Source: Longimicrobiales bacterium
GTDB taxonomy: Bacteria > Gemmatimonadota > Gemmatimonadetes > Longimicrobiales > Gaopeijiaceae
Direction: 5' to 3'
Length of the DNA stretch: 64,000 nucleotides
Assembly: GCA_965249725.1 (NCBI GenBank)
Contig: CBDFMQ010000002.1
Coordinates: 640,001-704,000 of the forward strand
Positions 27,001 to 33,000 of the stretch are shown here, one piece after another. Made by a program: the position numbers. Numbering within the stretch: position 1 is the stretch's first letter; each line of letters opens with the position of its first letter.

Positions 27001-30000
27001 CGAGTTGAGAAACACGGTCGAACGGCTTCTGATTCTGTCACCGGGCGAAGTCGTGAGACCGGCCGACGTGGACGCCCTGGTCGGCGGGGCCGACCGAGGA
27101 GACGGGCTGGGAATGGCTCTGCTGAGTACGGAGACGTTCGGCGACTTCAAGGAACAGGCCGAACTGGTCTACATCACGCACAAGCTCCGCGAGAACGACT
27201 GGAACGTGAGCGAGACCGCGCGTCAGATAGACATGCCGCGTTCGAATCTCTACAAGAAAATCGAGAAATACGGCCTCACCCGGGATGACAAAGGGGGCCC
27301 CGTCTAGGGCGACCCGGGTTCCTTCCTTATCTCGGCACCGTTGGGCAGTGCATACAACGCGTCGAGCGTTCTGAAGTCCCTCGTCGAGAGACTGCGCGCG
27401 GTGTTGGTGGGGTACATCACGTCACGCTGCGAGTCACTGTGTGGCAACCCCAACGCATGTCCCATCTCATGAGCTGCGGTCAGGAGCACCTGCTGTGGTG
27501 TCAGGGCCTGTCTGTAGTTCGACGGATTTCGGGAGGCCAACACCAGCCTGAGCACCCGGAAGCGCGGCTCCCCTGATTCGAATCGCCATTCGATGCCCGT
27601 TACGCCGAGTTGGGTTCCGTAGAGACCCGTGTTCCACGAGACCGTGATGTCGGCGGGTTCCGCCGACGTCGTGCGAGAGTCGATGACCAACTCGAAGGGC
27701 TTGCGATTCCAGTACTGGAAGCCACGGACGGCGGCGCGTTGGAGGTCCCTTATCTGGCTCTGATCCCTTCCCGGAGGCGGGGGGATGCGGATGCGCAGAC
27801 GGGTGGTCCCGTCAGGCCACCGATAGGCGCGTTGGGAGCCTGATTCCTCTAGCTCAGTGCAGAGGTACCCGACATCCCGGCAGGCTTCACCGGCCTGGAG
27901 AACGACGCGTGCCGCATTGGGGCCCGCCAACACGCCTTCATCGCAGAACGACGGGTCGCCAGCAGGGCAATCACTCGCTGCATCAACACCCGCGCCCTCC
28001 GAGTCGGCGAACATGGGCACCCGCCCGCGCAGCACGTTCACTGCCACGGCAAGGATCCCAATCAGGAGAAGGAATGAGACTGGAGATGGTTTTCCGCGCA
28101 CACACACCGCCTTCGGTACTCTTGACTCGAGTCGGTCCCTCACTGTTGTGATACGCCGACTCCTTCTATCAACACTAGGTTCGGATCCCCGTTGGAGGGA
28201 AGGCTCGCGTGCACGAGCGCGCCAGCCCCGAGACTGGAACGGAGGTCGGGCGCCTGTGTATTTTGAAAAACCCGTCAGGTTTTTCGTCGGGTTTCCCGTC
28301 GAGCTTCCCGTCGAGCTTCACGTCGAGCTTTACGTCGAGCTTTACGTCGAGCTTTAAGCGTGACCGGGACAGGGGACCGAGAGGGTCGCCCCCCGGGCGA
28401 GCGGATGTGGTCCATGACCTAACGTGAGAGCGAAGGACGATAGATGGGTGACGAACGGAACACGGCGCGAAAGGAAAAGGGTGCGGGCCCGCTCCGTTTG
28501 ATCTGGGATTGGACGCGGTCGCTCTTCTTTGCCCTGATGCTCTTTCTGGTCGTCCGTACCTTCATCGTAGAAGCCTTCAAGATCCCAACCTCCTCGATGG
28601 AGGGCACGCTCCTCGTAGGCGACTTCCTGCTGGTGAACAAGGTGGCCTACGGTGCCGAAGTGCCCTTGCTAGGGATGAAGTTGCCGGCGTTCAAAGAGCC
28701 ACTCCGAGGCGACATCGTAGTGTTCAACCCCCCGCACGATCCCATCAAGAACTACGTGAAACGGGTCGTGGGCATGCCTGGGGACACGCTAGAGATGAGG
28801 GACAAGGTTCTCTACGTGAACGGGGCCGAGACGAGCGAGGAGTTTGCGCGGTATGTCGACCGCAACGGTGCGGACGCCATACACCCCAATATGAAGTGGC
28901 AGCGCAGTCATCTGTTGGCTCGGGAGACGGTGCGCCGGCGTGGACGCAGAGGCGAGTATCGACCCTCTCGCGACAACTGGGGGCCTCTGGCCGTGCCGGA
29001 CAGCAGTTACTTCGTGCTCGGGGACAACCGCGACAACAGCGAGGACTCCCGGTACTGGGGGTTTGTAGAGAGGGGTGCGATCCGAGGTCAGCCCTGGATC
29101 GTCTATTACTCCTTCGACGCCACGGGGGGGCGACCTGCGTGGTTGCGGGCTGTGCGGTGGAATCGGGTAGGCGGTCTAATCCGCTGACAGGGCAGTCGTG
29201 ACATCAAAGAGTGACAACCCCCGACTCCTCTGAGGATTCTGCACTGGGGCAGTTGCGCCACGCGCGCCTTGACGTATCATTTGCTTGCTTCGGTGCCCCC
29301 CCCCCGTTCCGGGCGGGGACGCGACCAGACCCACAGACGATGGAGGGCTAGATGAGTTTTCCTTCCCGTCGAGGTTCTTTCCGGGAAGGGTCGCTCGATC
29401 AGTACCTCAAGGAAATCAGCCAGTATCCGCTGATCGACAAGGCTGAGGAGGTACGGCTTGCCAAGGGCATCAGGCGGGGTGAGGAAGAAGCGCTCAACAA
29501 GCTCGTTCGCTCCAATCTCCGATTCGTCGTATCCGTCGCTAAGAAGTATCAGAATCAGGGTGTGCCGCTCTCAGACCTGATCAATGAGGGCAACCTGGGC
29601 CTCATCAGGGCCGCCCATAAGTTCGACGAGACCAAGGGCATCAAGTTCATCAGCTATGCCGTTTGGTGGATTCGTCAGGCGATCCTTCAGGCGCTGGCCG
29701 AGCAAAGCCGCATCGTCCGGGTGCCTCTCAACCGCGCGGGGGCTCTCCACCGCATCGGACGTCGGACGTCGGCCCTTCTCCAGGAGTTGGGCCGTGAGCC
29801 CACCGTGGAAGAAATCGCCCAGGATCTCGATATCTCGGAGGAGGAGGTCGAGCGCACGCTAGCGATTTCTCAATCCCATCTGTCGCTCGATGCACCCATC
29901 ACTCCGGGTGAGGACAACCGGCACCTAGACTACCTGCCCGATCAGTACTCGCCCGGTCCGGAGGACCACGCGTACGAGCATGCGCTCAAGGACAGTGTTG

Positions 30001-33000
30001 AAGTCGCGCTGTCCACGTTGAAGGAGCGCGAGGCCAAGATCCTCAGGCTCTACTTCGGACTGGACGATCAGGAGCCCATGATCCTCGAGGAGATCGGCTC
30101 TCTGTTGGGGATCACCAGAGAGCGGGTGAGGCAGATCAAAGAGAAGGCCTTGTTACGACTTCGGCACGCTTCGAGGGCACGCTTCTTGGAGACGTTTTTC
30201 CAGGAGTAGCCCCCGGCGGCAAGAGGTCCGTCGAGACCCCCGTCGAGACCCCCGTCGAGACCCCCGTCGAGACCCCCGTCGAGACCCCCGTCGAGACCCC
30301 CGTCGAGACCCCCGTCGAGACCCCCGCAACCCCCCGAAAACGCTGCCCTTTCCCCCGTTGACACCCCCAACACCCTCTACTATCCTTGATAGCTCTGTCG
30401 TTCAACAATGCGTGGGAACACGGTGAAGACATACACTCCTAAAGCTGACGAAATCGAACGCGCCTGGTGGGTCGTCGACGCAGAGGGGAAAACCCTCGGG
30501 CGTCTGGCCACCGAAGTGGCGCGCATTATTCGCGGCAAACACAAGCCGATGTTCACGCCCCATCTCGACGTGGGCGATTACGTCGTGGTCATCAATGCCG
30601 AGAAGGTCGAGTTGACCGGCAACAAAGCCGATCAGAAGACCTACTTCCGGCATTCCGGCTATATGGGTGGCGAGAAGCACATCCCGTTTCGGCGTATGAT
30701 CGAAAGACATCCGGATCGGGTGATAGAATTGGCCGTTCGGGGCATGCTTCCCAAGAACACCCTCGGACGCCACATGCGTAAGAAGCTGAAGGTCTATGCC
30801 GGTGCGGATCACCCGCATCAGAGTCAGAATCCTCAGCACCTAGAGCTCTGAGCGGAATCGGACACGATTTAATGGCGGAACACAACATTCAGACCGTAGG
30901 CCGGCGGAAGTCTGCCGTTGCCCGCGTAGTGCTCACGCCAGGAAAGGGCGAGTGGTCGGTCAACTCGCGAGACCTGACCGATTATTTTCCCCGTCCCACC
31001 CACCAGCAGCGTATTGAGCAGCCGCTCAAGGCGGTGGAGATGGACGGTCAGTTCGACATCAAAGTGCGTGTGCGAGGTGGCGGACCGACCGGTCAGGCCG
31101 ATGCGGTTCGCATGGGCCTCGCCAGAGCTTTGGTGGAGCACGATGAGGAGCTGCGTCCGGTGTTGCGCGCCGGCGGGTTCCTCACCCGAGATGCCCGGAA
31201 GGTCGAGAGGAAGAAGCCCGGTCGCCCCAAAGCCCGGAAGCGCTTCCAGTTCTCCAAGCGTTAAACCGTCGAGACGAAGAAATACATGCAGCAGCAAGTG
31301 GGCCTAAACGAATTGCTTGAGGCTGGCGTTCATTTCGGACACCAGACCCGCCGTTGGAATCCGAAGATGCGCAAGTTCATCTTCACGGAGCGCAACGGCA
31401 TCCACATCATCGATCTGCGTAAGACGCTGGATCGCTTGATCGCCGCTCAGCAGGCGGTTCGTGAAGTGGTTCTCGCCGGCGAGCATGTTCTCTTCGTATG
31501 TACGAAGAAGCAGCTCAGGGGCATCATCGAGCAGGAAGCCGAGGACTGCGGCGCGTACTACGTGACCGAGCGTTGGCTCGGGGGCATGCTCACGAATTTC
31601 CAGACCATTCGTAAGCAGATCCGCCGTCTCAAGGAGTTGGAGCGGGGCCAGGAAGAGAGCGCCTTCGAGTTCTACACGAAGAAGGAGCGCCTCTTGCTCG
31701 ACCGCGAGCGTCTGAAACTCGACAAGTACCTGTCGGGTGTGAAGGACATGAGTCGGTTGCCTGGTGCTGTCTTTGTGGTCGACGTCCGACGTGAGGGCAT
31801 CGCGGTCCGTGAGGCGCATCGTCTCGGGATTCCGGTCATCGCCATCACCGACACCAACGCCGACCCGGATCTCATCGAGTATCCGGTGCCCGGAAACGAC
31901 GACGCGATCCGTTCGGTGGGGCTGATCACCAAGGCCATCGCCGAGTCGGTCAAGATCGCGAGCACTCAGGTGCCTGTCGAGCAGAAGCGGGCAGTCCAGG
32001 AAGCGCAGGCGACCACGTACTCGACTGAAACCGGTGAGACCACCGAGGTCCAGAACCGTCCGTCCGCCAGGCGCCGTCCGAAGCGGCATCCCCTCCCCGA
32101 GGCCATCGCAGAGAAGACGGGCGCGAAGGCTGACGGCGCAGAGGAAACGAAGGAGACCGCCGAGGAGATCGCCGAGGAGATCGCCGAGGAGACCGCCGAG
32201 GAGACCGCCGAGGAGACCGCCGAGGAGACCGCCGAGGAGACCGCCGAGGAGACCGCCGAGGAGACCGCCGAGGCTGCCGAGACCGCCGCCGAGTCGAAGG
32301 ACGAGGCGCCGACTGCCGAGGCAGGGGACGAGGATGCGGCCGAAGCGGGGGACGCGACCGCCGAAGCTGAAAAGGGCGGGGCCGAGTCGGAGTCCTGAGT
32401 CACGGTACCACACCTCGGTCTACGGCCGCGGTAACCCGCCTTGGTTGTCTCAGGGCCGATAGAGGCGGAGCGGTTGGGCGCTCCCGCCTCTTTCTTTTAG
32501 TCAAAACAACAACTCGAGTAACACGGACCTAACGAATGTCGATTTCAGCGAAAGACGTGAAGGCCCTCCGCGATAGAACCGGTGCGGGCATGATGGATTG
32601 CAAGAAGGCGTTGGTCGAGACCGATGGCGATCTCAAGGCGGCCATCGACCTGTTGAGGGCCAAAGGCGCGGCCAAGGCTGCCAAGAGGGCCGAGAAGTCG
32701 GCGAACGAGGGCACCGTCGGTTCGTACGTCCACTTCGACAACCGCACTGCCGTCATCGTCGAGGTCAATTGTGAGACGGACTTCGTTGCGAACACCGATG
32801 ACTTCAAGCAGCTGGCCAAGGATCTGGCCCTGCATATCGCCTCGGCGGCGCCGTTGGCAGTGGCGCCCGAGGACATCCCTGCCGAGATCGTAGCGCGGGA
32901 ACGCAGGGTCTACGAGGAGCAGGTCAAGGAAGAGGGCAAGCCCGAGAACATTGCCGATAAAATAGTTGAAGGTAAGCTCGGTAAGTTCTTCAAAGAGAAC

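Follow-up and report, generated by a model that had tools for sequence, protein, structure and literature searches.

Short sigma-70 paralogs without region 1.1 and the probable replacement of RpoD within class Gemmatimonadetes

Introduction

The rpoD gene is regarded as nearly universal and as passed on by vertical descent. The window analysed here, a 64,000-nucleotide stretch of contig CBDFMQ010000002.1 from a Longimicrobiales bacterium (genome G000; three contigs, 95.8% complete), carries at positions 29352..30209 (+ strand) a sigma-70 gene whose product has only 285 aa. The locus raises the question of which sigma factor serves the housekeeping promoters of this bacterium, and of what became of its RpoD.

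Results

Sigma factors of the genome

A six-frame phmmer search of G000 returned exactly four ORFs of group 1/2-like sigma factors (285, 297, 286, and 286 aa), the number given in an earlier note on this DNA. They were designated paralogs A (the window gene), B (C1:354636-355529, + strand), C (C1:332352-333212, - strand), and D (C3:2296087-2296947, + strand), the last three lying outside the window. Of 14 other region-2 matches, the four that were read were short ECF-like proteins of 159-212 aa, and the remaining 10 were classed by open-frame length alone. Paralog A carried Pfam regions 1.2, 2, 3, and 4, with 13 residues ahead of region 1.2 (8-27 residues across A-D), and had neither region 1.1 nor the non-conserved region. 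The statement that no sigma factor of G000 has region 1.1 was borne out: PF03979 gave no match and, because this model is insensitive (region 1.1 was detected in just 6 of 14 control genomes), a profile was built from 108 related RpoDs, whose best match in G000 had an E value of 0.19.

The four paralogs are not equivalent. Paralog A scored 259.3 bits on TIGR02393 (cut-off 354; an f4 RpoD scored 353.3), and B, C, and D were more distant from RpoD than A by identity comparison, TIGR02393 being scored for A only. B and C shared 47% identity. D was 83% identical to C, with the region-2.4 glutamine replaced by leucine, and appears to be a recent, divergent copy of C. The short sigmas retained the WW-x-RQ residues of region 2.3/2.4 and the TRER-x-RQ residues of region 4.2, whose roles are known from E. 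coli sigma70, which fits contacts with TA and TTG elements.

In the window, paralog A is preceded by a gene which we take from its motifs to be lepB, encoding signal peptidase I (28444..29187, + strand; sequence, synteny), a neighbor conserved phylum-wide, and by a predicted promoter of its own, TTGCGC-N16-TATCAT (29253..29280, + strand; sequence and motif scan). It is followed, here and in several families, by a gene that, from its sequence, is presumably rplM (ribosomal protein L13; 30423..30851, + strand). For the rplM-rpsI-rpsB-tsf operon, the promoter predicted is TTGACA-N17-TATCCT (30358..30386, + strand; sequence and motif scan), a housekeeping instance of the TTG/TA motif.

Loss of RpoD from the dnaG locus

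The absence of a sigma gene beside dnaG held on inspection: in G000 a zinc-ribbon gene begins 39 bp after dnaG (C3:1597994-1599793, - strand; outside the window), leaving the rpoD slot empty, and this junction was bridged by single contigs of the public runs X3 and X5, both from one sample that may be the source of the genome. The further claim that RpoD is not found in class Gemmatimonadetes proved wrong. An RpoD-type C-terminus (E<=1e-85) was present in 17 of 18 genomes of family f4 and in the one genome of f9 (18/19), where the RpoD carried the non-conserved region, followed dnaG in the loci examined, and had an N-terminus no longer matching region 1.1. In the other eight families, such a C-terminus was found in 1 of 281 genomes. 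Other classes of the phylum had RpoD in 15 of 17 genomes, with short paralogs alongside in 5/5 examined. The order mutS2-dnaG-rpoD was observed in 10 loci of relatives (six from f4 and one each from f9, f11, f12, and f13), and the zinc-ribbon gene lay downstream in 3 of 11 tested. RpoD was lost within the class, two of whose families still retain it, and G000 uses promoters of the -35/-10 type although it has neither RpoD nor region 1.1.

Several candidates were set aside. The single RpoD among the 281 genomes (G239, family f1) was counted and read as a probable contaminant; it lies on a 3.4-kb contig, has 59% identity, and falls outside the RpoD clade of the phylum, in line with that reading. 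The sole PF03979 match in the class (G070, 1/121) was excluded because it is probably a chimera of the assembly: at the N-terminus it is unlike all other f4 RpoDs read; the native N-terminal part follows dnaG on another contig, cut at the end. Long open frames around short sigmas (e.g., 462-874 codons in f1/f2) were read-through of upstream DNA and not long sigmas. A scan of contigs for RpoD gave only RpoDs of other phyla, which served as outgroups.

Phylogeny of the short sigmas

The trees were quick searches with SH-aLRT support only and were flagged for a possible meeting of long branches. The short sigmas and Bacteroidota SigA formed one clade apart from RpoD and RpoS (SH-aLRT 100 and 97 in two trees), within which B and C formed one clade (SH-aLRT 98); the branch of C had a long stem and short tips. 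The RpoDs of the phylum grouped with those of Eisenbacteria and Latescibacterota (SH-aLRT 99). AU tests rejected the placement of C with f4/f9 RpoD (p=5.5e-6) and of Bacteroidota SigA with FCB RpoD (p=1e-6), while the result against C as sister of Bacteroidota SigA was marginal (p=0.043). As judged from these sequences, the short sigmas are not truncated forms of RpoD but members of a paralog family to which Bacteroidota SigA also belongs, and the phylogeny indicates that SigA of Bacteroidota, too, is a paralog of ancient origin rather than a shortened RpoD. Paralog A appears to be the ancestral paralog, grouping with Bacteroidota SigA at moderate support (SH-aLRT 88).

Against plasmid records, the best named matches were from Bacteroidota (58%), and Bacillota RpoD reached at most 50%. 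Among the 60 solved-structure matches shown, no molecule name suggested a sigma of the Bacteroidota or Gemmatimonadota type; SigA chains of 368-390 aa scored best (organisms not listed). A cluster look-up of 10 representatives returned a named cluster for three and taxa for one.

Distribution of paralogs A, B, and C

C was found in 138 of the 141 RpoD-less genomes and B in 131, several of the f5 counts of B being weak, near-threshold matches that may belong to another paralog; neither occurred in the 19 RpoD-keeping genomes. The presence of both paralogs coincides with the loss of RpoD, as they were found only where it is absent. Paralog A occurred in 87 of the 141 RpoD-less and 12 of the 19 RpoD-keeping genomes, and was missing from f7 (0/41) and from genus g2 (0/9). 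In G008, G056, and G072 it was decayed in place, with region 3 deleted. A is best regarded as an older paralog common to RpoD-bearing genomes and dispensable in several lineages.

In the single-contig genomes G056, G072, and G115, C was the only full-length group 1/2 sigma, and in G060 (also single-contig) it was the only full-length type, in two copies; these C-only genomes are 93-95% complete. G101 (two contigs, 98% complete) had A and B and no C, and the usual slot of C after the Omp85 gene was contiguous and empty, so that either C is by itself dispensable or a relocated copy dropped out of the assembly. Within the family of G000 itself, B (39/39) was more constant than C (38/39), which counts against C.

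Promoters

In 2201 upstream regions of G000, TTGnnn-N17-TAnnnT was found at 133 sites, compared with 15.7+-3.2 in dinucleotide shuffles, and in co-directional gaps it occurred at 64 sense and 3 antisense sites. Upstream of tRNA/tmRNA genes the motif was found in 12 of 56 cases in sense and once in antisense, and the lexA promoter reads TTGCGT-N17-TATCGT. These promoters had been called canonical. This description fits the TTG element, the spacing, and T-12, A-11, and T-7; it does not fit the rest of the -10 element, as TATAAT was not enriched (7 sites vs. 8.6) and T was preferred at -8 (z 8.9). The counts in 740 kb of the C-only genome G056 (N16-18) were 33 sites vs. about 11 expected (21 sense, 2 antisense), and 400 kb of the RpoD-keeping genome G014 gave 34 vs. 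about 5 (20 sense, 2 antisense). Since RpoD-keeping relatives show the same motif, the promoter grammar needed no change. Seeded motif refinement stuck in its seed, and anchored profiles were used.

The Bacteroidota-type promoter TTTG/TAnnTTTG (-33/-7) had one bipartite match in the 2201 regions, and TAnnTTTG alone had 29 vs. 21.2+-3.8 in shuffles, only the TAnnTT part being shared with Bacteroidota. Besides the TTG/TA motif, the site counts resolved no other of bipartite form. The promoters of G000 cannot be assigned to one paralog from sequence.

A relocated 6S RNA

G000 had been described as lacking 6S RNA, and RF00013 indeed gave nothing at E<=10 in this genome and nothing in six loci scanned. 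This was an Rfam false negative. A phylum model (R1), for which 16 6S RNAs from relatives with RpoD were used, matched G000 over its full length at C3:2651286-2651452 (- strand; 61.6 bits, E 4.5e-12). The model matched 29 of 33 RpoD-less genomes; among the controls it matched 6/6 held-out ones from f4 and missed the one from f11. In an alignment of 26 of the 29 matches, 21 of 32 pairs changed on both sides, and 91.3% of cells were paired vs. 77.7+-0.9 in shuffles, none of 500 reaching as high, the structure being derived from the same alignment. The candidate folds as a long rod with a central bubble, and its sequence is colinear with the Rfam-positive 6S RNAs of RpoD-keeping relatives. The gene no longer adjoins zapA, the zapA-rny gap being 122 nt in G000. 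An interim reading that 6S was lost together with RpoD, based on zapA loci over the cut-off (7/9 in f4/f9 vs. 0/11 in RpoD-less genomes; 20 of 30 loci scanned), did not survive the phylum model. Since the RNA persists, at a site apart from zapA, its most likely partner is a holoenzyme with a short sigma.

Discussion

We consider it probable that a paralog took the place of the housekeeping sigma, which was not itself shortened, and that the B/C pair carries housekeeping transcription. The distribution and the trees place in the ancestor of the phylum a long RpoD, within a mutS2-dnaG-rpoD-zinc-ribbon cluster, together with region-1.1-less sigmas of about 285 aa belonging to the same family as Bacteroidota SigA. 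Two families of Gemmatimonadetes keep this RpoD with its altered N-terminus. On the stem of the other eight, B and C would have arisen as sister paralogs within the short family, and the operon lost its rpoD; the pattern is seen in the genomes, while the order of the events is our inference. By elimination, the B/C pair, and usually C, would drive the TTG-N17/18-TAnn(T)T housekeeping promoters, with A as an older auxiliary sigma.

That an RpoD is present and was missed, through an assembly gap or because it is too divergent, is very improbable. G000 is an incomplete assembly in three contigs and PF03979 is insensitive, but the bridged dnaG junction speaks against it, and so does the lack of RpoD in 280 of the 281 genomes from the eight families, many of them single-contig; the same query picked up RpoDs from other classes (E<=1e-101) and one foreign RpoD (1.8e-92). 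This reading is largely refuted. It is unlikely, on other grounds, that A is the primary sigma in G000 and most of the class, like its sister SigA in Bacteroidota, with B/C taking over where A decayed. A shares 54% identity with Bacteroidota SigA vs. 40-41% for B and C, precedes the rplM operon, and has the best ribosomal-type codon score of the four (A 96th percentile, B 77th, C 52nd, D 9th), the effect sizes being tiny. It is universal in f2, f5, f6, f8, and f10 (58/58), and in f5, f8, and f10 (47/47) it is 67-85% identical to the G000 copy vs. 58-70% for C, which counts against B/C as primary. However, A was missing at threshold in 12 of 39 genomes of the family of G000, among them the single-contig G005, in which only B, B, and C were found; it decayed in f7, and in genus g3 it diverges faster than C (62-78% vs. 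79-89%). It also coexists with an intact RpoD in relatives, which suggests that it evolved as an alternative sigma. A is probably not the primary sigma, being older than the loss of RpoD and absent from, or decayed in, entire lineages.

Quite unlikely, too, is the absence of any single primary sigma, with A, B, and C overlapping at shared promoters, where any one or any two of them would be enough. Such overlap would explain the reciprocal losses: G101 retains B but not C; G056, G072, G115, G060, and G091 retain C but not B; and there are genomes without A. The same region-2.3 motif and region-4.2 helix in all paralogs and the single bipartite motif resolved also agree with it. Yet C was missing in just three of 141 genomes, two of which are explained by assembly breaks (G024 also lacks the neighbor gene of C, and G141 has C-like pieces at contig ends), and the 47% identity of B and C, with the long stem and short tips of C, suggests distinct roles. 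We retain the B/C pair as the preferred answer, with C, by elimination, its usual housekeeping member.

The primary sigma of Bacteroidota, sigma-ABfr or SigA, was reportedly studied by Vingadassalom in 2005 and 2007. It is described in PMC6847099 and PMC7366714, and the latter reports validation of the B. thetaiotaomicron 6S RNA. Like the sigmas studied here, SigA has about 286 aa, no region 1.1, and the same region-2.3 to 3.0 substitutions, and belongs to the same clade; in Bacteroidota as in G000, classical rpoD is absent and 6S RNA is retained. Bacteroidota, in contrast, use TTTG/TAnnTTTG promoters and have one SigA, compared with TTG-N17/18-TAnn(T)T in G000 and three or four paralogs here, and the candidate primary sigma C is not the sister of SigA, although the AU test is marginal. 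Gemmatimonadetes, unlike Bacteroidota, have RpoD-keeping relatives within the same class.

There is about an even chance that two independent swaps drew on one ancient short family, on the A-like branch in Bacteroidota and on the B/C branch in Gemmatimonadetes, with promoters unchanged throughout. The steps of the second swap, equally balanced between acceptance and doubt, may be preserved in living genomes: RpoD with region 1.1; RpoD with a decayed N-terminus, next to a short paralog of high conservation; deletion of rpoD in genomes that have B and C, with 6S relocated and re-tuned; and reduction to C alone. Iyer and Aravind in 2012 (J Struct Biol) reportedly described a bacteroidetes-chlorobium-gemmatimonad lineage without group-1 sigma, in which a group-2 sigma is primary, and are said to treat this absence as one shared lineage trait. 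The absence of group-1 sigma in gemmatimonads has probably been published already; the RpoD kept in two families and in other classes points to a separate, later loss. Our literature search, with most subscription papers outside its range, returned no paper on primary sigma factors, promoters, or 6S RNA of Gemmatimonadota, and neither the within-class replacement steps nor the hidden 6S family was found in print.

SigA of Chlorobaculum tepidum (CT1551), as described in bioRxiv 10.1101/172254, has the -7 consensus TA[ATC][ATC][AT]T and clades with Bacteroidetes RpoD, apart from other RpoDs. By that description, its consensus is close to TAnn(T)T of G000; C. tepidum has a single primary sigma and mapped start sites, whereas the promoters of G000 are predicted. 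Bacteroidota offer a precedent for a primary sigma lacking region 1.1, and Chlorobaculum offers one for a similar -10 element. Compared with group 1 RpoD/sigma70, the short sigmas share regions 1.2, 2, 3, and 4, a spacing of 17+-1, and TTG and TAnnnT; they differ in lacking region 1.1 and the non-conserved region, in lying away from dnaG, and in forming a separate clade. The 6S RNA of G000 resembles the RF00013 family in its long rod and bubble and differs in going undetected by RF00013 and in lying away from zapA.

These results locate a probable RpoD replacement within a single class, in which the sister families that keep RpoD act as natural controls, and make testable the need for region 1.1, the hand-over of primary sigma function without promoter rewriting, and the adaptation of 6S RNA to a new sigma. 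In this group rpoD is unusable as a marker, and Rfam misses 6S RNA in most of the class. The promoter consensus is useful for building genetic tools for Gemmatimonadota.

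Loss of RpoD within the class

The genome under study (G000; 4.16 Mb, 3 contigs, 95.8% complete; the window spans C3:640001-704000) had no region 1.1 by PF03979, as the earlier note had claimed, though PF03979 detected only 6 of 14 control genomes. A region-1.1 profile, built from 108 related RpoDs, scored 50-82 bits on RpoD N-termini of several other phyla and of f13, a family of another class of the phylum; its best match in G000 had an E-value of 0.19. The absence of a sigma gene beside dnaG was likewise confirmed, a zinc-ribbon gene coming 39 bp after dnaG. Single contigs from the public runs X3 and X5, which share one sample that may be the source, spanned this junction, and overlapping pieces from the runs X1 and X6 covered it. 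RpoD is absent from G000, and its operon slot has collapsed. PMC3372290 describes linkage of such zinc-ribbon genes to dnaG and rpoD as common.

The finding is real, is wider than the window and has known precedent; two claims that had supported it, the lack of RpoD throughout the class and the lack of 6S RNA, were overturned. Among the region-1.2 matches from 121 class genomes were long frames of families f4 and f9. These encoded RpoD-type proteins that have a non-conserved region; those of f4 also have an acidic N-terminus. With the C-terminus of these RpoDs as query (E<=1e-85, 301 genomes), RpoD was found in 17/18 f4 genomes, 1/1 f9 genome and 1/281 genomes of the other eight families of the class, the last being carried by a contig of 3.4 kb and falling outside the RpoD clade of the phylum. 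The tallies take in four unpublished genomes (G018 and G022 in f4, G029 in f3, G126 in f5); without them the f4 count was 15/16 and every conclusion was unchanged. In other classes of the phylum, 15 of 17 genomes had an RpoD of 555-612 codons, and short paralogs (2-5 each) stood alongside RpoD in the five genomes examined. The order mutS2-dnaG-rpoD was seen in ten loci (f4, f9 and the other-class families f11, f12 and f13), with the zinc-ribbon gene downstream of rpoD in 3 of 11 loci tested. Since RpoD occurs in f4 and f9 and almost nowhere else in the class, its loss falls inside the class. The region-1.1 profile gave about 0 bits or less on the tested RpoD N-termini of f4, f9 and f11; even where RpoD survives, then, decay of region 1.1 had already taken place. 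The sole PF03979-positive sigma in the class (L002 / G070:C43) was rejected as a genuine region-1.1 sigma; it is apparently a misassembly that joins the N-terminus of a foreign RpoD to the C-terminus of an f4 one.

Iyer and Aravind reportedly described in 2012 a bacteroidetes-chlorobium-gemmatimonad lineage without group-1 sigma, and the core observation has probably been published already. Bacteroidota are known to have a primary sigma that lacks region 1.1 (PMC6847099). No literature on the within-class loss, the B and C paralogs, the promoter motif or the 6S RNA family described here was found in a search that reached a minority of subscription papers; PMC12641261, PMC12632263 and PMC8716302, in their accessible parts, had no bearing on class Gemmatimonadetes.

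Short sigma factors and the window locus

Six-frame phmmer of G000 returned exactly four group 1/2-like ORFs, the number given in the earlier note. Paralog A, a 285-aa sigma-70 protein identified by ORF and Pfam analysis, was at window 29352-30209 on the forward strand; the six-frame search placed B (297 aa) at C1:354636, C (286 aa) at C1:332352 on the reverse strand and D (286 aa) at C3:2296087. Pfam showed region 1.2 (residues 14-46) in A, followed by regions 2, 3 and 4, and the named relatives of A were from Gemmatimonadetes and Longimicrobiales (88-90% identity). A, B and C shared 46-47% pairwise identity; D was 83% identical to C, with the conserved glutamine of region 2.4 replaced by leucine.

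From their sequences, we take the neighbours of the A gene to be a signal peptidase gene on one side and, on the other, the rplM-rpsI-rpsB-tsf operon. A perfect 12-bp tandem repeat (8.2 copies, window 30228-30326) lay between A and the predicted rplM promoter; a related degenerate array was upstream of lepB (window 28281-28356) and a similar one upstream of lexA. A 12-bp repeat of 10.2 copies within rpsB (window 32151-32273) gave ribosomal protein S2 an acidic tail of repeats. Upstream of the A locus, window 21071-23385 held what are presumably genes for a P-loop NTPase and a helix-turn-helix protein, together with part of a comM-like frame; they may mark an insertion site. Elsewhere, Gemmatirosa kalamazoonensis plasmid 1, a megaplasmid, carried a fast-evolving copy of A (L154), SigA-type copies were also on Hymenobacter plasmids, and B was tandemly duplicated in two genomes of the G000 family f1, G005 (L212, L215) and G149.

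The best named plasmid-record matches to A were Bacteroidota SigA (58%), with Bacillota RpoD at 50% or less, and Bacteroidota clusters topped the ESM Atlas look-alikes, a lead only. In quick IQ-TREE searches of 88 and 53 proteins, with SH-aLRT support only, the short sigmas of the phylum and Bacteroidota SigA formed a single clade (100, 97), and Eisenbacteria and Latescibacterota RpoD clustered with the long RpoDs of the phylum (99). AU tests (50 rows, three long-branch outgroups omitted) rejected the grouping of C with f4/f9 RpoD (p=5.5e-6) and of Bacteroidota SigA with the phylum and Eisenbacteria/Latescibacterota RpoDs (p=1e-6), and marginally that of C with Bacteroidota SigA (p=0.043). The separate clade and the AU tests rule out the short sigmas as clipped RpoD; they are an old paralog family, separate from RpoD and predating its loss.

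Promoter motif

Upstream regions of G000 (2201, from our own calls of 3709 genes) contained 133 TTGnnn-N17-TAnnnT sites, compared with 15.7+-3.2 in shuffles. This was the spacer peak; N18 gave 92 (14.8+-5.2), N16 gave 46 (16.8+-4.4) and the remaining spacers 16-29 each. In co-directional gaps, 64 N17 sites were sense and 3 antisense. With TAnnnT alone as the anchor, T-35 (z 17.8), T-34 (z 10.2) and G-33 (z 7.3) were recovered, and T-8 was preferred (z 8.9). The canonical -35/-10 promoters of the earlier note therefore stood as to this motif, but not as to TATAAT, which was unenriched (7 vs 8.6). The Bacteroides bipartite motif occurred once in the 2201 regions; a -7 element similar to that of G000 is reported for Chlorobaculum tepidum in bioRxiv 10.1101/172254. 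The motif was upstream of 12/56 tRNA/tmRNA genes and of rplM, lexA, A and C; no clear match was found upstream of B or the 6S gene. By mononucleotide shuffles with small counts, it was enriched in 740 kb of G056 (2.92 Mb), a C-only genome, and in 400 kb of G014 (2.4 Mb), which keeps RpoD; the latter indicates that the promoter grammar is older than the RpoD loss.

6S RNA

RF00013 had no match in G000, and gave 3 weak matches in 83 other class genomes vs 9/17 in other classes. In f4, f9 and f11-13 the 6S RNA sits after zapA; the zapA-rny gap of G000 was 122 nt. A phylum covariance model built from 16 6S RNAs of this type (E-values rough) found a full-length homologue in G000 at C3:2651286-2651452 on the reverse strand (61.6 bits); the reported absence was a library miss. 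The model matched 29/33 RpoD-less genomes; 26 of these matches, once aligned, had bubble-flanking motifs in common, and 21/32 predicted pairs changed on both sides. The 6S RNA would bind a short-sigma holoenzyme. Bacteroides likewise keeps 6S RNA alongside a short sigma (PMC7366714).

A structured RNA at G000:C3 about 1327700-1328100 (L392) failed the phylum model and was rejected as 6S RNA. The zapA-rny gap was 260-326 nt in L376 and L371 (f6), L377 and L380 (f7) and L391 (f3). In the two f6 genomes it contained conserved sequence that is promoter-like and rich in hairpins; the former 6S slot may hold a leader or small RNA.

Primary sigma factor

Among the same 160 relatives, C was present in 138/141 RpoD-less and 0/19 RpoD-keeping genomes, B in 131/141 and 0/19, and A in 87/141 and 12/19. 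B and C, which are sister paralogs (SH-aLRT 98), occurred only where RpoD was absent. A was not found at threshold in any of 41 f7 genomes or of 9 genomes of genus g2; in f7 a decayed A kept its place between lepB and rplM, and the three copies read from genus g22 had lost region 3. In the single-contig genomes G056, G072 and G115, C was the only full-length group 1/2 sigma (C-only genomes were 93-95% complete), and G060 had two C copies. Three genomes were without C. In G024 the neighbour gene of C was missing too, and G141 had C-like pieces at contig ends; G101, with A and B present and the usual slot of C after the Omp85 gene contiguous and empty, is a real exception. Against C as primary count the universal and well conserved A of f5, f8 and f10, the presence of B in 39/39 f1 genomes, and the ribosomal-type codon score in G000, highest for A (96th percentile) and at the 52nd for C. 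By elimination, our reading is that the primary role would belong to the B/C pair, usually to C, rather than to window gene A.

Housekeeping initiation by B/C would use the kept residues of regions 2 and 4.2 in the roles that these have in E. coli sigma70. Region 1.1 is an autoinhibitory domain and an acidic DNA mimic in the channel; without it, the channel would hold no such mimic, and autoinhibition from that domain would be missing. A would be an auxiliary sigma and D a drifting copy.

The A frames of g22 (L396, L397, L398, L450) were open, without region 3 and altered in region 2.3-2.4; they could be decaying or a core-binding antagonist. A similar region-3-less sigma was present in f4 (L399, L013). 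A short paralog with a basic N-terminus was found in 4/4 f4 genomes examined (L159-L162), with branch lengths of 0.01-0.05 vs 0.06-0.21 for RpoD, and is a candidate co-primary sigma in this RpoD-keeping family.
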